From positions 1 to 63,312 of the forward strand of contig JAPDJY010000048.1 of NCBI GenBank assembly GCA_029258835.1: 63,312 bases of DNA. Reading direction: 5' to 3'. Of this stretch, positions 41,145 to 48,510 are shown one piece after another. The notes below the pieces were generated by a model. That model did not search any database. It was not told the DNA's origin and worked only from the letters and a program-made list of their open reading frames with translations. The stretch comes from Thermoproteota archaeon. GTDB taxonomy: Archaea; Asgardarchaeota; Jordiarchaeia; Jordiarchaeales; Freyrarchaeaceae. Every line of letters begins with the position of its first letter. Position 1 is the stretch's first letter. The position numbers were made by a program, and so were the translations under genes.

Positions 41145-42620
41145 TTGAGACTTCTTAACGATCACGTGTGCCCTATATGCGGGAATGAAGAGGTGAGTTA
41201 TTACTGCGAGTCATGTAGCTCTCTTTTTTGTACTTCATGCGTTAAGGTTCTAAAGACAAACTACGCAGTGTGTGATACTTGTGGAACCATTTACCATTTA
41301 GACCCTCCCTTGAATAAACCGTTTTTCTGCAAGTCGTGTAAGGGTACTGTCTTTAGGGTTGGTGTTAAGAGATCTCTTCTTTGTCCTCAATGCGGCTCAA
41401 ATAATGTAGTGAGTGTGCTTAGAAAGAAAGAATTACAACTGAGTAGGGTTAAAGGCCTCGGAAGCGACTTCCTCGATGTTTCCCCGTTTATGATGAATGT
41501 CTTAAATGCTCTCTCAAAGATTAAAGCTCGTCTTCTGAAGCTTAGAAGAAACGGTTTTCTTCATCACCCTGACCTTGAAGAAGCAATTATAAACTCTTAT
41601 GTCTCTTTTTCATCACTTAAACTTAAGGCTCTTTCTAGAGTAGAGCGAATAGTAAGTGGGTTAGCCTCCAGCATCATTAACCTCTTTAGGGAATGGTCTC
41701 CTCTGAAAATTAAGGAGATAGACGCTTACCTTGACCAAGTTAGTGGTGCTGTAGAGGAGTATAAAGGATTCGTGAAAGATGAATGCCAAAGCATCATAAG
41801 CAAAATACGTGAAGTAAGCGCAGTCATAGAATACCTGGAATTTCATCATAACTTCTTTGAACGTTTTAAGAGCATACTCGACTTAAAGGATCATGAAAGG
41901 CCCGTTTGCGTTATTCCTGAAGTCAAGTATACTGGCAGCGATTTTCTCTCTTCAGACAAAGGTGAAGGCTTATTATTCTTTACAAGTGAACGAGCCATAT
42001 TCATAAGGCGGGAAGGGCTTCTTAAGAAGATGTTTAAAAGGCAGTTTAGTTTCCCATTAAACGATGTTGAACTTTTAGTTAAACGTGGTCTGCGGCGTGC
42101 TTTTATCCTTAAAACGGGCAAGGGGAAGGTCTGCTTTACGTCTTCAAGGCATGTTATAGAAAAAATTGAATCTTACTTTGAACTGGCAAAAAACTTTAAG
42201 TCTCTCTCTTTGGCAGATGATACATTAACAAAAAGGCTTGAATCCATGAGTGTAGGCTTAAATGATTTCAAAAGAAAAATAACGTCTCTAATGCATTCGC
42301 TTTTAAACCCAAAGAAAGCTGAATCTGAACACTCTCAACAAGTTCCTTCCCATCTTAACATTCCCTTTCCCCCTTCGCTCCCTCCCCCCCGCCCTTCTTG
42401 CTCAGTAATTCCACCTTACAGAAACGAGAATGACCGTAGAAAAGAGCTTCTCCTTCTAGAGAAGGAGAGGTTCGCGGTGGAGCAGAACCTCAAAAAACTC
42501 GAAGAGTTATGGGATAAAGGAGAAATTTCACTTGAAGACTACTTTAAACTTTCAAGGAAATTCAAGGGTGAACTTTACGAGCTTAACGCCAAAATTCAGG
42601 AATTGACGTGCCGCCTCTAG
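41145..42620 (+). CDS. Multi-Zn-finger / coiled-coil / PH(GRAM/GLUE)-like / Pro-rich / steadiness-box-like protein
   Basis: Six CxxC pairs; GEGLLFFTSERAIF; PFPPSLPPPRP; C-terminal LEELWDKGEISLEDYFKLSR. Confidence 0.7.
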   Translation: MRLLNDHVCPICGNEEVSYYCESCSSLFCTSCVKVLKTNYAVCDTCGTIYHLDPPLNKPFFCKSCKGTVFRVGVKRSLLCPQCGSNNVVSVLRKKELQLSRVKGLGSDFLDVSPFMMNVLNALSKIKARLLKLRRNGFLHHPDLEEAIINSYVSFSSLKLKALSRVERIVSGLASSIINLFREWSPLKIKEIDAYLDQVSGAVEEYKGFVKDECQSIISKIREVSAVIEYLEFHHNFFERFKSILDLKDHERPVCVIPEVKYTGSDFLSSDKGEGLLFFTSERAIFIRREGLLKKMFKRQFSFPLNDVELLVKRGLRRAFILKTGKGKVCFTSSRHVIEKIESYFELAKNFKSLSLADDTLTKRLESMSVGLNDFKRKITSLMHSLLNPKKAESEHSQQVPSHLNIPFPPSLPPPRPSCSVIPPYRNENDRRKELLLLEKERFAVEQNLKKLEELWDKGEISLEDYFKLSRKFKGELYELNAKIQELTCRL

Positions 42621-42634
42621 CATCCTCTTCCTAA

Positions 42635-43282
42635 TCATCCTTTCTCCTCGGCTTTCTCCTTTTTCTCTCCTTCTTCAAGCTCCTTCCTTAAGCTTTCTAG
42701 GTCTTCTAGAAGTACTTCCTTGTCGGGTATTGGCGGCTCCGTTGGGACTTCCGGCTCTTTAACCCCCTCGAGAGCTATTTCCGCTTCAAGTTTGTCCAAC
42801 TCGGCGCTTACGTCTATGCCCTCCCCCATGCTTACCGGCGATGACAGTAACTCTCCGCTCCTATCTATTTCCTCCATCATCTGTTCGTGCCTTATAGTCA
42901 TCTCCATTATTTCATCCGAGCTGGCAAGCTTCATTGCGTCTTCCATGATCTTCCCAGCAGCAGCAACGCTTTCCTTAACCTGCACTATGTCATGGGCTTG
43001 CTCTATAGCGAAAAGCCGTGTTTCAAGGTTCTCTATAAACCCGGCATACCTGTTAAGGGCATTTAGATAGAAGTGGTATCGCCTCAAAGCGAGTTCAGCA
43101 CCTTTTCTATTACCCGCTCTAAGATACATTTTCGCGGTTTCTCTAGCCCTTCTCGCCTGTTGCTCATACCTCTTTGACTTAGCGATTAAATTGTTTATGG
43201 TAGCCCTTATCTCACTAATTATTTGATCTCTGCTCTTAGGTCTCTTACCAAACAGCTTGTCTTTTAAGCTCATTCGAACCAT
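42635..43282 (-). CDS. ESCRT-III Snf7-family protein (Vps20/32/60-like)
   Basis: LKDKLFG N-terminal helix, GNRKGAELALRR, IENLETRLFAIEQA, acidic tail with PEVP. Confidence 0.85.
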   Translation of the reverse strand: MVRMSLKDKLFGKRPKSRDQIISEIRATINNLIAKSKRYEQQARRARETAKMYLRAGNRKGAELALRRYHFYLNALNRYAGFIENLETRLFAIEQAHDIVQVKESVAAAGKIMEDAMKLASSDEIMEMTIRHEQMMEEIDRSGELLSSPVSMGEGIDVSAELDKLEAEIALEGVKEPEVPTEPPIPDKEVLLEDLESLRKELEEGEKKEKAEEKG

Positions 43283-43355
43283 TTTCCCCCTTCATGTTCC
43301 AGTATAAATAGCACATAACTACTAATTAAATCTCTCTCTTAAGGCACGTAGCGGC

Positions 43356-46319
43356 TTATCCGCTTCCTAACATCCTCCTAAGCTCTTCTATCTTCTTGAA
43401 CGCCTTCTTCCTAAGGAAGCTATACTCTTCCTCGGTCATCCTACCAAGCAAGTAATACTCGTGTAAACTTCGAAGATACTTCTGGATTCTTCCAATTTTC
43501 GAAATAATTTCCTCATCGCTCATCCCTTCTCTTGCAAGCTCCCTTCCTAATCGTGTTTCTCCTTCGGCACTCGCCTTAACCTCCACTTTCCCTCTTTCAG
43601 CACTTTCATCAACACTAGGCTTCTCCCTTACCATCATGCTTACCGCTTTCATTTCTTTCTCCTCTTTTCCTTTCCTCCTTTCCACCTTGACTTTTGGTGG
43701 CGGAATCCACCCTCCTTCTCTACTAATCTCTTGGAGAATGTTTTCTATCAATTCTTTGGCCGTCATTGCTTCCCCTTTGCTTGGCGCTGTGACCTCAAAC
43801 GCTATTACTGATGCGGTGTTGGTCCAAGCCAAGCTAAATCCTATTCTAACGTTTCCTTTCTGTCCCAGAAAAACTAGGGCATCCCCCTCTAAGCAAGTGA
43901 GCTCCCAGCCTTGAAGCGTGAGCTTCTCTCTTAACGTAGAAAGCATCTTCTCAGGGTCTACTCTGAGAGCCTTCTGAAAGTTTACCCCTTGAATCTTGGA
44001 AGATGGGTAAAGGTACTCGTTAAACCTATACTTTATAAGCCTTGAAAGATAGTCTCCTGCCAAGTCATCCGAAACGTCTAATATCGGAATTCTCTTTTTA
44101 GCAACACCAACCCTCTCCTCACCACCAACCATCCCAACTCCACTTTCATCCATCTTAACTTCCACTTTCTCCCCTATTTTTTCTGGAATCAAAGATGTAA
44201 CTTCTTCGCTTCTCCCCTCCTCCAAGAGAGAGGCCGATCCTGGCCTGGCTAGTCCTGGTATAGCCTCCCTGCCAGCATGTTGGCTTTGCCTAGGCCTAAT
44301 CTTAACCGCTAAAACCCGTCCTGTATCTATCGAAGCATCCGAGATCAAAGCCATACCTATAGGGATCCTACGTATAAAGTCTCTTGACATCTCTTGGGGG
44401 ACCTTATTTGGCGATCTTCGCATGAACGCCTCTATATCCGCCTCAAATGTTAAATAATGTGTAATTATCATGTCAACTTGAGACAGGATTTGGTCGCTGG
44501 TTGCTGAGGGTTGCTGGGTGGCTAGAACTAAAGCGCACCCCGGCTTTCTTCCAAGCTTAGCATACTCTATTAACGGTCCAGAAGCAGCCGTCTCCCCCCT
44601 AGCAGGGGCAAGTATATGTGCCTCATCGACCATTAGCCAAGTGACAGGGATCTCTTCCTTAATAGCGCCCACGGAACCAAACTGTAATCCCTCCTCCCTC
44701 CTCGCCAGCTGCATCCTCTTCTCAAGTATCTTCCTTGCCAGTAACCCAACAACTAGCCCGCGCAGCCCCTCTGTTAAATAGCTTACATCAACTACAGTAA
44801 CCATATTTGGAACGGCAATTTGGTCTAATGGAGTTCCTTCCCGGGAAAATATCCCCCATTCCTTTGCAGATAAAAGTCTAGAAATGACGGCCCTCCTAGT
44901 GTCGGTTCTGAAGCCTCTGTCTTTAGAAAGAAGTTCTAGAGACGTTTCAACACATTTGATCATGTCGTCTATGGTGTACTCGTCTCTCTTCCCCTCCACC
45001 CTAATTTTCTCGTCTCCTTCAACTGCTTCATACCCTTCTCTTACCTGTATTAGGGCACGTTCAAGCAGTAATCCCATAGCGCCGAATCTCTCCACTCCGA
45101 ACGCATAGCACCAGTCATCTACTGTTAGGTCGGAAGGCTTTATAGAGAACGCCATATCCCTCGTAGCATCAGGCAGCTTATCGTAGACGCCTAAAGGCAC
45201 GAGCACTCTGATGTTGGTAAACCCTCGAGGCTTAAGCCCCCATCTTCTAAGCTCTTCAACTTCCTTCTCCTCCCTGTTTGGATACTTCATACTCCAGAAA
45301 ATCCCCACCGGATCTACTATTACAACTGCTAACCCTAAGCCTGACCTTGCAAGCTCCTCAGCTAAAACACCCATCGTGTAAGACTTACCTGACCCACGCT
45401 GGCCACATATGAATATAACGTGTGGTTTAAGGGCATCCACTAGAACAGGTTTGCCAAGGAAATTATTTTCTTCCGCCCGCTCACATATACATCCAATGTA
45501 CATAAGCCCCTTAGCACCGAAGGTTTGCAACTTATCCCTACTTCTACCAAGCACAACCCCTTCCCCTACCGGATCCTCAAGAACCCTAAGCTTCGAGGAA
45601 ACCTCCAATGGTTCCTTTACGATTCTTCCTCTCTCCTCCTCTCTAACTTTTAATTCTCCTAGAAATGCAGAGAAGCGGCGCCACATCCCCTCGTCATAGA
45701 AGTTTAATGACTCAAATATCATATCCCTAGCTTTTTCATCCTTTGGATACACGTCTACTTCAAAGCCACATAACTCCCAGCATGATACGGCTACATCGCT
45801 CTCACTTAATCCCTTTCTACCCAGCTCCTCAACGGCTCTCTCAAAGTACTCGCTTTTTCTGGTAGCTCCGTAAAGTATCAGCAATCCCTTCGCTTTTTCT
45901 TCTTGAGGAAGTTGCTCAACCATTTCTCTCATCTTAGAAAGGATCTCCTCTTTTCCACTCCTTCGAAATTCTTCAAGGAGAACTCGGAGGATTTGTAAGT
46001 CCACAGGTTTCGTGCGAAACGCGTACTCAACCATTTTACTTAAGGCATTTTTAACATCGTCTAAGCCCTGCCCATCAACTTGGAGAATGAGTCTGAACGC
46101 GTGGGCAAGGGATGAAAGGTCATTTTCAAGTTCTCTTCCCTCTAAAATATTCTTTGCAAGCTTCACCGCTCCCTTCCTTGCCCTTTCAAGGTACTCATCC
46201 ATTCCAGTAAGCCGGTAGGCGATCAACAACGCGTTAATGATGTCGCTACTAAGCTTCACGTCTTTAAGTGCTTCTAGGGAAACATATAGAAATTCGTAAA
46301 TCGGTCTACCTCTTTCCAA
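43356..46319 (-). CDS. HerA/FtsK (DUF87-type) P-loop ATPase with N-terminal helical and C-terminal accessory domains
   Basis: Walker A GQRGSGKS, VDPVG, Walker B LMVDEAH, GRKPG..LVLATQQPS. Confidence 0.88.
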   Translation of the reverse strand: MERGRPIYEFLYVSLEALKDVKLSSDIINALLIAYRLTGMDEYLERARKGAVKLAKNILEGRELENDLSSLAHAFRLILQVDGQGLDDVKNALSKMVEYAFRTKPVDLQILRVLLEEFRRSGKEEILSKMREMVEQLPQEEKAKGLLILYGATRKSEYFERAVEELGRKGLSESDVAVSCWELCGFEVDVYPKDEKARDMIFESLNFYDEGMWRRFSAFLGELKVREEERGRIVKEPLEVSSKLRVLEDPVGEGVVLGRSRDKLQTFGAKGLMYIGCICERAEENNFLGKPVLVDALKPHVIFICGQRGSGKSYTMGVLAEELARSGLGLAVVIVDPVGIFWSMKYPNREEKEVEELRRWGLKPRGFTNIRVLVPLGVYDKLPDATRDMAFSIKPSDLTVDDWCYAFGVERFGAMGLLLERALIQVREGYEAVEGDEKIRVEGKRDEYTIDDMIKCVETSLELLSKDRGFRTDTRRAVISRLLSAKEWGIFSREGTPLDQIAVPNMVTVVDVSYLTEGLRGLVVGLLARKILEKRMQLARREEGLQFGSVGAIKEEIPVTWLMVDEAHILAPARGETAASGPLIEYAKLGRKPGCALVLATQQPSATSDQILSQVDMIITHYLTFEADIEAFMRRSPNKVPQEMSRDFIRRIPIGMALISDASIDTGRVLAVKIRPRQSQHAGREAIPGLARPGSASLLEEGRSEEVTSLIPEKIGEKVEVKMDESGVGMVGGEERVGVAKKRIPILDVSDDLAGDYLSRLIKYRFNEYLYPSSKIQGVNFQKALRVDPEKMLSTLREKLTLQGWELTCLEGDALVFLGQKGNVRIGFSLAWTNTASVIAFEVTAPSKGEAMTAKELIENILQEISREGGWIPPPKVKVERRKGKEEKEMKAVSMMVREKPSVDESAERGKVEVKASAEGETRLGRELAREGMSDEEIISKIGRIQKYLRSLHEYYLLGRMTEEEYSFLRKKAFKKIEELRRMLGSG

Positions 46320-46372
46320 CTAATACGCCTCCCTTTCAGAGGAAAATTCTGAAAGAAGAAATGATGTTGCCG

Positions 46373-46984
46373 TTAAAGCTCTTCCTTAAGCTTCTTTATA
46401 TCCTTCTCAAGCTCTGCGATTTTACCTGCAGGAACAGAAGGAAGCTTCACACCCGTTTCAACACCTATCTCTTGATCTATCTCTGAAAGGGTTTCAGCTA
46501 CCTCCTTTGAGGTCACATCGGTTGAAACAGTCATCCTCTCAAATCCAGCTTCCGTCACATCTTGAGCTATATCAAACTCCTGCATTGAAGCATCGATCTC
46601 ATCTACAAGCTGCGAAATGTCCGGGAGATTAACCGTGCTTTTTAACCCTTCCAATGCTGCCCTAATACCAGAGAGAGTGCTTGCGACCTCGTAAACGGAC
46701 TGGCTCTGCCGTAGTTTAACAACCATCCCGTGAATTCTAAGCCTATAAGAATCAGTAGCTAAAGCCCATTTTTGATATCTCAGGTAATGCTCAGCATACA
46801 TCTTCGCCGCCTCATTATTACCCATCATGCGGTAACGCTTCGCTTCCTCCCTGTTCTTCCTAGCCTCCCTTTCCAACTGTTTCTTATGGTATTCAAGTTT
46901 CCTCGTGAACACTTCAAGCTTGAAAATCACGTCTTTAAGTTTTGGGCCACCCTTAAGCCAGTTTATGAACTTCCTTAGCGACAT
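46373..46984 (-). CDS. ESCRT-III Snf7-family protein (Vps2/24/46-like)
   Basis: GNNEAAKMYAE, LPDISQLVDE, tail LPSVP..ELEKDIKKLK; RBS GGTGG. Confidence 0.85.
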   Translation of the reverse strand: MSLRKFINWLKGGPKLKDVIFKLEVFTRKLEYHKKQLEREARKNREEAKRYRMMGNNEAAKMYAEHYLRYQKWALATDSYRLRIHGMVVKLRQSQSVYEVASTLSGIRAALEGLKSTVNLPDISQLVDEIDASMQEFDIAQDVTEAGFERMTVSTDVTSKEVAETLSEIDQEIGVETGVKLPSVPAGKIAELEKDIKKLKEEL

Positions 46985-47085
46985 AGAAACCACCAGCATG
47001 TCCTTCCATACAAAGATTGGAAAGCCTAGGTTATAACACTTTCCTAAAAGGCATCGAACAAGTTAGCATTTTTACATTTGGTTGC

Positions 47086-47682
47086 TCATTTCACCTCTAC
47101 TACTTCTCCCCCTTTTCTATCCAATTCGTCATGAACCATAACAATACAGTGGCTTCCTAAATACCTCTTCGGCCCTAAACTTACCTTGAAGGCACCTAGC
47201 TTCTCCAGCAACCTCTCGCTACGAGGAGGAAGCCCCAAGTGATCCCCAAGCACAAATAACACGTCCTTTCTATGAGGAAAATTAACCATCCTTATCGGTT
47301 TCCCACTCTCATGAAGATAGTATACCTCCGCTTTTCGCCTAACCTCAGACACCGCTTCAATGAAGCTTTTCCTTTCAACATTGAATCCCTTTATTTTTTC
47401 CCCTTTAAGTAGTTTTTTTAAAGTAAGTGCCAGCTGGAGCTCTGACCCTGAAATGTTATCGATTTCTGCGCCATCCACCTTTAACGTTAAGGGAGGGGCA
47501 GGAGGCCCCTCTAGAACAGCGTAAAATACGGTGTTCAACCGAACCCCCCCGCCAAACTTCAAAGCAGCTATTACGCATCTGCAAACAATATCAAGTCGCC
47601 CAGAGGTCCCTGGAAGGTCTTTAATGTTAAAGCTGTTCGAGGTACATGCTTTACGTGCTTCCATAATGAAAATGCGTCTCAT
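47086..47682 (-). CDS. trmY: tRNA (pseudouridine54-N1)-methyltransferase
   Basis: DLPGTSGRLDIVCRC, FVLGDHLG, SLGP..SHCI (SPOUT fold). Confidence 0.88.
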   Translation of the reverse strand: MRRIFIMEARKACTSNSFNIKDLPGTSGRLDIVCRCVIAALKFGGGVRLNTVFYAVLEGPPAPPLTLKVDGAEIDNISGSELQLALTLKKLLKGEKIKGFNVERKSFIEAVSEVRRKAEVYYLHESGKPIRMVNFPHRKDVLFVLGDHLGLPPRSERLLEKLGAFKVSLGPKRYLGSHCIVMVHDELDRKGGEVVEVK

Positions 47683-47685
47683 ACA

Positions 47686-48510
47686 TTACCCCCAAACAGC
47701 CAAGTAGAACATATAGATTCCAATACAAACCATAAAAAACCCGAAAAGCCGTCGAAGACCCCGTGCAGTAAATTTCCCAGAAATCCTCGAGCCTACTTGG
47801 CCGCCTAACACTGCTCCTGCTCCCATGGCTAATGCGTAAACAGTGTTTACATGTCCAAGCATAGCATGCTCGGTAATTCCAACCAATGCGGTTAATAAGA
47901 TCATGAAACAGGATGTCGCGACTGCAATATGAATTGGAACTCCTAAAAGGGTGAGAAGTGGAACCTTAAGTATTCCTCCTCCTATTCCGAGGAAACCTGA
48001 CGCCATGCCAGCAATGAAGCATCCTCCGAAAGCGATTGGAAGATTAATACTATATTTGAGAACTCTACCCTCGCCATCCTCTAGTTGCCTTCTCAGGTGG
48101 ACGCTGTGTAGCCAGCTTATTCTAGCGGAAACTTCCCTCTTTACGCCTAAAATCATTCCTGTACCAACGATGATTAAGCCAGCAGCAAAGACCCCCTCTA
48201 ACATAAAGGATTTTATTATGCCTGTTAGGTAGGCTCCTATAAATGCTCCTGGCATGGTGGCTCCTTCAAGTATCAACCCTAGCACCAAGTCAACTTTTCC
48301 CTGGCGGCAGTAGCTTAAAGTAGCCGAAGAGGCTGTGAATGCTATTACACATAGGCTTGTCCCAACAGCATTCTTCATGTTTACCCCCCCAATAAGATGG
48401 AGAACCGGAACGTTTAAGAATCCGCCTCCTACACCAAGAAGCGACGCTACAACACCTACCAGTAAGCCAATAATACTTAATACAATAACTAAAATCATGG
48501 TCGCTTCCAC
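47686..48510 (-). CDS. TauE/SafE (TSUP) family membrane transporter
   Basis: Duplicated LGVGGG / LGIGGG...VP...AVGTS/AVATS motifs. Confidence 0.9.
   Translation of the reverse strand: MEATMILVIVLSIIGLLVGVVASLLGVGGGFLNVPVLHLIGGVNMKNAVGTSLCVIAFTASSATLSYCRQGKVDLVLGLILEGATMPGAFIGAYLTGIIKSFMLEGVFAAGLIIVGTGMILGVKREVSARISWLHSVHLRRQLEDGEGRVLKYSINLPIAFGGCFIAGMASGFLGIGGGILKVPLLTLLGVPIHIAVATSCFMILLTALVGITEHAMLGHVNTVYALAMGAGAVLGGQVGSRISGKFTARGLRRLFGFFMVCIGIYMFYLAVWG

Follow-up and report, generated by a model that had tools for sequence, protein, structure and literature searches.

Asgard ESCRT systems are the closest prokaryotic model for the membrane-remodelling machinery of eukaryotes. Their ubiquitin-ESCRT gene clusters have been described (Hatano et al. 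2022, PMC9192718; Makarova et al. 2024, PMC10936438), and in Asgard families that lack the ATPase reported here the two Snf7 genes stand immediately side by side. The locus examined lies in a window of 63,312 nt, the whole stretch of DNA that was analysed (contig JAPDJY010000048.1 of assembly GCA_029258835.1), from a member of the Freyrarchaeaceae. Compared with the published clusters, it carries standard ESCRT-IIIA and ESCRT-IIIB genes, but these are parted by a gene for a 987-aa HerA/DUF87 ATPase, and the machinery as a whole is spread over three contigs, with a 388-aa MIT+AAA+Vps4_C protein (Vps4) followed by a Vps25-like gene on contig C1, and a Vps23-Vps28-Vps22 operon on the third. In the searchable text of the two papers cited, a HerA/FtsK/DUF87 gene in Asgard ESCRT clusters is not mentioned, nor, as far as the literature could be searched, is this ATPase gene discussed in it. 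Because its order between the ESCRT-III genes is kept in nine families, the ATPase is probably an undescribed ESCRT-III partner.

Three consecutive genes on the minus strand make up the triad. ESCRT-IIIB (46373-46984), a Vps20/32/60-like Snf7 protein of about 203 aa, matched Pfam Snf7 at 1.2e-19 (71.0 bits), and ESCRT-IIIA (42635-43282), a Vps2/24/46-like Snf7 protein of 215 aa, at 1.1e-18 (67.9 bits), both exceeding the gathering cut-off of 27.3 bits. The ESCRT-IIIB reading frame stays open to 46999, and the probable true start is the ATG at 46984, which agrees with the N-termini of orthologues. Between them, the ATPase gene (43356-46319) begins with TTG and is separated from ESCRT-IIIA by 73 nt and from ESCRT-IIIB by 53 nt, confirming the consecutive, co-directional arrangement with gaps of roughly 50-75 nt noted in the original prediction. 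A search of the whole assembly (2.72 Mb, 94.7% complete) recovered only two Snf7 genes, those that flank the ATPase. In their tails both products retain MIM-like motifs that would suit a MIT domain, and the N-terminal W-L-x-G motif of ESCRT-IIIB, together with its LP-x-x-P and terminal helix, is conserved among orthologues.

The ESCRT-IIIB-ATPase spacer contains an 8-bp RNA hairpin (46333-46355, minus strand) and a GGGAGG Shine-Dalgarno-like site (46328-46333), the first base of which the hairpin overlaps, 8 nt before the TTG of the ATPase; a 64-nt fold of the hairpin region gave -13.8 kcal/mol with z = -2.07, a weak signal. These features, read from the sequence, fit operonic translation of the ATPase, which is probably translated from one transcript shared with ESCRT-IIIB. 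A TATA-like box, TATTTATA (43303-43310, minus strand), is situated 21-28 nt upstream of the ESCRT-IIIA ATG as a putative internal promoter, and ESCRT-IIIA may accordingly be expressed from a promoter of its own.

Among described proteins, the ATPase most resembles HerA, the motor of HerA-NurA(-Mre11-Rad50) end resection (PDB 4d2i, 9x1l-9x1p, 7wrw), with which it shares fold and motifs. It matched the Pfam DUF87 / HerA central domain at 2.4e-13 (51.2 bits, cut-off 23.2) and the NCBIfam HerA model NF040819 at 2.5e-13. Walker A (GQRGSGKSYT) occupies residues 306-315 and Walker B (WLMVDEAH) residues 561-568; K312, S313, D565 and E566 were invariant or nearly so across 68 homologues, and R591 and Q602 are further invariant residues. 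The GSGKS and DEAH motifs and a GRKPG...TQQPS block (arginine-finger/sensor) align to Thermococcus HerA (9x1l). When the AlphaFold2 model (pLDDT 88.7) was compared by Foldseek, the top PDB matches were to HerA, with E from 1e-16 to 1e-11; all 50 of the PDB matches listed were HerA proteins (best E 1.2e-16, 450-520 aligned columns), Sir2-HerA and DUF4297-HerA among them. On this sequence evidence the 987-aa protein is a HerA-clade ATPase with intact catalytic motifs, predicted to be an active ring motor, and since HerA supplied both the best sequence and the best structure matches, the protein presumably works as a hexameric translocase.

Identity with the repair HerA was rejected. The NF040819 score of 49.4 bits is far under the equivalog cut-off of 970, no NurA gene adjoins the ATPase, and the protein differs from repair HerA in carrying an extra toroid, an alpha/beta domain and a hairpin, and in being encoded inside an ESCRT-III operon. 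NurA, Mre11 and Rad50 are absent from the neighbourhood of the triad, so that the earlier judgement that this is not a repair context was borne out; NurA genes lie on contigs C17, C2 and C71, the first two adjoining ordinary HerA paralogues, and canonical HerA-NurA pairs thus occur elsewhere in the same genome.

The additional domains set the protein apart. Residues 1-232 (45624-46319) were modelled (pLDDT 90.7) as a compact 12-helix (alpha/alpha)6 toroid, aligning over 205-219 residues to GH88, GH76, AGE, LanC and cyclase barrels (VIA Z 12.2), with a TM by query of up to 0.70 to GH88 in the ESM Atlas. This result disposed of a MIT-like N-terminal domain. The one candidate in the model for an N-terminal HAS beta-barrel is a short stretch of beta structure (about residues 240-300), which precedes the RecA-like core (beta region and core together residues 240-690, 44250-45602). 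Over beta region and core, identity is 44-51% with homologues from Thermoplasmatota, Methanofastidiosia, Hadarchaeales and DPANN. Among the homologues compared, those outside Asgard lack the toroid and have no ESCRT neighbour, and the toroid is confined to the ESCRT-linked Asgard clade. Beyond the core, between two disordered linkers, the model shows an alpha/beta domain (residues 745-870, 43710-44087) of order alpha-beta-alpha-beta4-alpha, which had no match in Pfam or the Atlas and is kept in all toroid-bearing orthologues. No obvious membrane anchor was noticed on inspection of the protein.

Of the 400 Asgard genomes surveyed, 384 have ESCRT-III and 32, from nine families, have the toroid-bearing ATPase, nearly always adjoining ESCRT-III; ESCRT-III therefore does not need the ATPase. 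The triad order recurs in genomes of the same family and the same order, and also in Helarchaeota-type, Hod-labelled and other Asgard loci. Of the 30 toroid-bearing loci examined, 18 have ESCRT-IIIB directly upstream of the ATPase, and ESCRT-IIIA orthologues lie downstream in Jord/Frey, Hel-type, f4, f18 and Heimdall/Gerd-type loci. Linkage confined to this genome had been named beforehand as a ground for refutation; the adjacency proved to extend over nine families, surviving despite the rearrangement of everything else. A functional link between the ATPase and ESCRT-III is for this reason well supported by gene order, and we consider it reasonably likely that the ATPase functions as a partner of ESCRT-III in Asgard archaea, an accessory motor beside Vps4.

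The same survey bears on the idea that the ATPase is a chromosome-handling or housekeeping HerA paralogue merely co-regulated with ESCRT-III, for instance through the cell cycle, with no physical coupling. Members of the wider subfamily are common in archaea where no ESCRT gene adjoins them, the possible separate promoter of ESCRT-IIIA would suit such an arrangement, and linkage is partial in the Gerd/Heimdall-type family, where ESCRT-IIIA follows the ATPase in five of eight assessable loci, the other three have no ESCRT-III gene within the available sequence, and the tightest partner of the ATPase is a 345-aa helical protein rather than ESCRT-III. Set against this are the retention of adjacency through nine families, the restriction of the toroid to the ESCRT-linked clade, and the Znr_CC_PH_SB adaptor that accompanies the cluster in four families, which together make simple co-regulation quite improbable. 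A most improbable account is that a module of antiviral defence built on HerA, or a piece of a mobile element, lies in the ESCRT locus by chance. Many defence systems do use HerA scaffolds, and PADLOC returned generic HerA and mad8 matches (1e-17 to 1e-5), but no Sir2, DUF4297 or nuclease effector adjoins the gene and its neighbours have no PADLOC match. The ATPase is, moreover, all-or-none by family, its tree groups orthologues by lineage, composition is unremarkable, and the surrounding genes are of housekeeping type (TrmY, proteasome alpha, TFB, aIF1, ProRS).

Like Vps4/CdvC, the protein is a ring ATPase encoded beside ESCRT-III genes, but it is a RecA-like HerA and not an AAA+ protein; identity with Vps4/CdvC was rejected, there being no MIT, AAA or Vps4_C match above threshold and the N-terminal domain being an (alpha/alpha)6 barrel. 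The cluster had been described at the outset as lacking Vps4, which holds for the window but not for the genome, where the Vps4 on contig C1 is normal. In Helarchaeota-type loci Vps4-Vps25 stand directly beside the ESCRT-IIIB-ATPase-ESCRT-IIIA string, and in loci L029-L033 Vps25 and Vps4 are divergent from and adjoin ESCRT-IIIB-ATPase. The system is thus not Vps4-less, and the ATPase probably acts beside Vps4 and not as its replacement.

These comparisons also weigh on whether the ATPase might act on protein, either as a second motor for remodelling or disassembling ESCRT-III by threading or stripping its subunits, a Vps4-like task, or as a pump that pushes cargo proteins into ESCRT buds, as with the FtsK-like EssC/EccC in type VII secretion. 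Its gene sits exactly between the two ESCRT-III genes, a position of the sort that Vps4 takes beside ESCRT-III in Asgard clusters, Vps4 has moved to a separate locus in Jord/Frey genomes, NCBIfam gave faint VirB4 and EssC matches, and a DNA-binding domain could not be detected. We nevertheless regard action on protein as unlikely: the nearest sequence and structure matches are all DNA-handling HerA proteins, every examined genome with the ATPase locus retains a normal Vps4, and the MIM-like motifs of the ESCRT-III tails would suit a MIT domain, which the ATPase does not have.

FtsK/SpoIIIE offers the other comparison, as it belongs to the same superfamily of pumping ATPases and is likewise tied to a membrane-scission apparatus, although the machinery associated with it is the FtsZ divisome and that associated with the ATPase is ESCRT-III. 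In the wider archaeal subfamily the motor is followed by a winged helix, in FtsK by a gamma domain. Identity with FtsK/SpoIIIE was rejected for the Asgard protein, which has no PF01580 (FtsK_SpoIIIE) match, a soluble helical toroid as its N-terminus and, over residues 690-987, no detectable winged helix. Many non-Asgard members of the subfamily do bear a C-terminal winged helix (TrmB, MarR, TFIIE type), and its resemblance to the FtsK motor and gamma domain is a hint, by analogy, of DNA. Double-stranded DNA is tentatively named as the likeliest substrate, at rather less than even confidence.

The accessory motor would bind ESCRT proteins physically; this, and what is said here of its oligomeric state, how it is recruited, what it acts on and which process it serves, is inference. 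The ATPase would form a hexamer, as HerA proteins do, and clade-specific appendages would tether it to ESCRT assemblies at membrane necks: the toroid, which would occupy the face that HerA partners normally use for docking; the alpha/beta domain towards the C-terminus; and a terminal hairpin that this lineage adds, similar to the one in the steadiness box of the neighbouring Znr_CC_PH_SB adaptor. At the neck it might draw a polymer through its pore at the expense of ATP and, were that polymer DNA, act as an FtsK/SpoIIIE-like device that frees the neck of DNA, or loads DNA through it, before ESCRT-III cuts. The coupling of scission to DNA translocation in the original prediction agrees with the HerA fold and with the FtsK-like layout of the wider family; synteny upholds its functional tie to ESCRT-III, and its DNA part continues to be conjecture. 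It is a doubtful though conceivable proposition that in some Asgard archaea ESCRT-III scission is coupled to a DNA pump powered by ATP: a HerA-type hexamer, docked on ESCRT assemblies, which would clear the chromosome from a constricting neck or else send DNA by way of such necks into vesicles or protrusions.

The candidate third appendage is a helical hairpin (residues 935-983, 43371-43517, from the model and a tail alignment) with a SHOCT / steadiness-box-like motif, restricted to families f1 and f2. Its comparison by hhalign with the steadiness-box tails of Znr_CC_PH_SB and Vps23 was statistically weak (E 0.028, probability 1.8%). Across members, Pfam gave no consistent Vps23_core, VPS28 or Mod_r match, the matches being weak ones to GvpG, a single SHOCT-like one and a single one to Mod_r, and within its own genome the hairpin had no match at E<=1. 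The adaptor (491 aa, 41145-42620, plus strand), ESCRT-I-like and with zinc-ribbon / B-box matches at its N-terminus, is convergent with ESCRT-IIIA, their stop codons 14 nt apart, and its C-terminal hairpin resembles the Vps23-core tail of the genome's own UEV-Vps23 (E 2e-6). It adjoins the triad in f1, f2, f4 and f18, and its family is already described (PMC10936438).

Within the ESCRT-III operon, several deep Asgard lineages (Jord/Frey, Hel-type, Hod- and Gerd/Heimdall-labelled genomes) have kept a second ring motor of unrelated type. Its conservation would mean that ancestral ESCRT did more than cut membranes, or had help that eukaryotes later lost; if it pumps DNA, ESCRT would have in it an equivalent of bacterial FtsK/SpoIIIE, and the lineage ancestral to eukaryotes a possible means of exchanging DNA. 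The finding also bears on the role of ESCRT in FtsZ-bearing Asgard cells: the present genome has two FtsZ genes, and cell division itself may therefore not be ESCRT-driven.

The original prediction placed a HerA/FtsK-type ATPase between two ESCRT-III genes, in a cluster without Vps4, and the gene cluster itself was correctly identified. Three co-directional ORFs follow one another on the reverse strand: ESCRT-IIIB (46373-46999, with a likely start at 46984; Pfam Snf7, 71.0 bits), an ATPase of 987 aa (43356-46319; Pfam DUF87/HerA central domain, 51.2 bits), and ESCRT-IIIA (42635-43282; Snf7, 67.9 bits), with spacers of 53 and 73 nt, respectively. All three matches exceed the Pfam cut-offs (27.3 bits for Snf7, 23.2 bits for DUF87/HerA central domain), and the two ESCRT-III genes are the only Snf7 genes in the whole source assembly (2.72 Mb, 91 contigs, 94.7% complete), of which the window is contig C10. 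The absence of Vps4 held for the window but not for the genome, since a Vps4 of 388 aa with MIT, AAA and Vps4_C domains is encoded on contig C1 (121.6-122.8 kb), where a gene for an ESCRT-II/Vps25-like protein (232 aa) comes after it. That the ATPase coexists with Vps4 is well supported. An operon of UEV-Vps23, Vps28 and EAP30/Vps22 lies on contig C28 (13.2-15.5 kb, locus L126), so that the ESCRT set is spread over three unlinked loci, while in Odin-type genomes the machinery forms a single cluster (PMC9192718). At the window locus, the ESCRT-IIIA-ATPase-ESCRT-IIIB genes are grouped with Znr_CC_PH_SB (41145-42620, forward strand), a convergent gene of the adaptor family described by Makarova et al. 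2024 (PMC10936438), the C-terminal hairpin of which matches the tail of the genome's own Vps23 core. The genome also carries two FtsZ genes.

The order ESCRT-IIIB, ATPase, ESCRT-IIIA is repeated within the taxonomic family and order of the source genome, and recurs in families f4 and f18 and on contigs labelled Helarchaeota, Promethearchaeota, Hodarchaeota, and Heimdall/Gerdarchaeota. A profile of the N-terminal (toroid) domain of the ATPase detected this form in 32 of 400 Asgard species genomes, representing nine families, and ESCRT-IIIB was immediately upstream of the ATPase at 18 of 30 loci. At loci L029-L031 and L033, divergent Vps25 and Vps4 genes adjoin ESCRT-IIIB-ATPase, meaning that the ATPase is embedded there in a classical Asgard ESCRT locus. 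There is good support for a conserved genomic partnership of ESCRT-III, in several distant Asgard lineages, with an intact HerA-clade ATPase bearing clade-specific appendages. Snf7 was found in 384 of the 400 genomes, and in genomes lacking the ATPase the two Snf7 genes often neighbour each other directly, which indicates that the ATPase is an accessory that only a minority of lineages possess. The toroid form is essentially all-or-none within families, the gaps in f1 being contig ends. Membership of the ATPase in a defence system is unlikely because no effector accompanies it, its occurrence is all-or-none by family, and its neighbours are housekeeping genes. An apparent 1169-aa ESCRT-IIIB-ATPase fusion at L143 (G142:C123:2686-6393) was rejected as an artefact, since its translation shows a stretch of N/X separating the two genes, and does not represent a Rosetta-stone fusion. 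Two Asgard-type ATPase loci were found under non-Asgard bin labels, L059 (contig titled Bathyarchaeia) and L030 (titled Deferrimicrobium); these contigs are probably mis-binned or mislabelled, as the tree nests them inside the Heimdall-type and Hel-type clades.

The Asgard ESCRT locus is already known, and what is new is the previously undescribed HerA-type motor within it. The full-text literature on Asgard ESCRT loci, as far as it was accessible, does not discuss a HerA, FtsK or DUF87 gene in them, though Table S2 of Makarova et al. 2024 might list the gene uncommented. Hatano et al. 2022 (PMC9192718) include a synteny plot of Hel_GB_B, which carries L033; according to its legend, only Ub/ESCRT-domain genes are coloured. 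Public annotations of the homologues read just 'ATP-binding protein', 'DUF87 domain-containing protein' or 'hypothetical protein'.

The view that this is not the repair context of HerA was upheld. NurA genes are located on contigs C17, C2, and C71, and the copies on C17 and C2 adjoin ordinary HerA paralogues of ~500 aa; this sets the ESCRT-linked ATPase apart as a paralogue distinct from the repair enzyme. It scored far under the cut-offs of the NCBIfam HerA equivalogs, which likewise marks it as a HerA-clade member and not an orthologue of repair HerA. Key residues of the Walker A (GQRGSGKSYT) and Walker B (WLMVDEAH) motifs are invariant or nearly so across 68 homologues, and both motifs align to the solved Thermococcus HerA, as does a GRKPG...TQQPS block. 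A profile of ten orthologues matched only HerA-type chains in the PDB, and Foldseek placed the AlphaFold2 model (pLDDT 88.7) nearest to HerA-NurA, Deinococcus HerA, Sulfolobus HerA, and Sir2-HerA (E values of 1e-16 to 1e-11).

The model divides the protein into five parts: twelve helices (residues 1-232), a short beta region with the RecA-like core (240-690), an alpha/beta domain (745-870) preceded by a disordered linker, a second disordered linker, and a helical hairpin (935-983). Modelled alone, the N-terminal part formed a compact (alpha/alpha)6 toroid (pLDDT 90.7), matching GH88, GH76, epimerase, LanC, and cyclase barrels across all twelve helices, with a VIA Z of 12.2 and TM scores, by query, of up to 0.70, values which on helical folds are evidence of topology and not of function. 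With this predicted fold, an MIT-like N-terminal receptor was ruled out. The tail hairpin has a pattern like that of the steadiness-box hairpin in the neighbouring adaptor, but the similarity is statistically weak (hhalign E 0.028); searched against its own genome it had no match, and against Pfam nothing consistent, while a feature search of the ESM Atlas with the alpha/beta domain returned no usable match. A complex prediction of the C-terminal region of the ATPase (residues 741-987) with ESCRT-IIIA, ESCRT-IIIB and the Znr_CC_PH_SB tail reached 0.26 against a mark of 0.32, and speaks neither for nor against binding.

In sister family f2, at L029, and in a Gerd/Heimdall-type family, the most constant neighbour of the ATPase is an all-helical protein of 290-360 aa without a Pfam family, encoded 3' of it, in many cases with the stop codon of one gene overlapping the start codon of the next (L028:8802-9839, forward strand; L027:3885-4922; L029:8612-9664; L043:8725-9753). 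In the twelve genomes of the Gerd/Heimdall-type family, a 345-aa version always lies 3' of the ATPase, and ESCRT-IIIA follows at five of the eight assessable loci. The helical partner is missing from Hel-type loci, and neither single-sequence nor profile searches for the 345-aa protein found it in the source genome.

For the wider family, a search of 1.8 billion representatives returned ~247 clusters at E≤1e-30, only about ten of them with the toroid. The core shares 44-51% identity with homologues in Thermoplasmatota, Methanofastidiosia/Theionarchaea, Hadarchaeales, and DPANN, and 36-39% with those in Thorarchaeota; no ESCRT-III gene lies within 6 kb of any of these relatives. A quick tree grouped the forms with the toroid, which may share a single origin, though its basal branches were not resolved. 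Neighbours of the non-Asgard relatives (TGT, an uncharacterised 507-aa protein, an EMC6_arch-like protein, and a transglutaminase-like protein) gave no common functional clue. In Thermoplasmatales, a toroid-less homologue of ~1200 aa, which carries DUF835, invariably precedes an EMC6_arch-like membrane protein and a transglutaminase-like protein, a distinct conserved module (L064:9544-12359, with equivalents at L055, L057, L065, L066, and L068). HVO_1301 of Haloferax volcanii is a HerA-domain protein reported at midcell with the FtsZ divisome (bioRxiv 10.64898/2026.07.16.738847); a comparison gave no link to the ATPase, in that no Haloferax protein was among the listed matches of the closest homologue labelled 'Halobacteria'.

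The original prediction also proposed a system coupling membrane scission to DNA translocation. The conserved partnership of ESCRT-III with an intact HerA-clade ATPase bears out one part of this; translocation, and DNA as the substrate, we infer. The ATPase would form a hexamer, be recruited to ESCRT assemblies, and there translocate a polymer. Many of the relatives carry C-terminal winged-helix domains (TrmB, MarR, or TFIIE type) or DUF835, and their motor-plus-winged-helix layout recalls that of FtsK. By analogy, this FtsK-like architecture and the HerA ancestry favour DNA as the substrate; the alternative of a protein substrate, such as ESCRT-III or cargo, must be taken seriously.

The ATPase may also be merely co-regulated with ESCRT-III. 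The 53-nt spacer before it holds an 8-bp hairpin and GGGAGG, 8 nt before the TTG start, an arrangement that would suit its translation from a shared transcript. A TATTTATA box in the 73-nt spacer, 21-28 nt upstream of the ESCRT-IIIA ATG, may allow that gene a transcript of its own as well. Directly upstream of ESCRT-IIIB, on the same strand, are TrmY (tRNA pseudouridine-54 N1-methyltransferase) and a TauE/SafE-type membrane exporter (47086-48510), and the gap of ~100 nt to the likely ESCRT-IIIB start at 46984 contains a TATA-like TGTTATAA.
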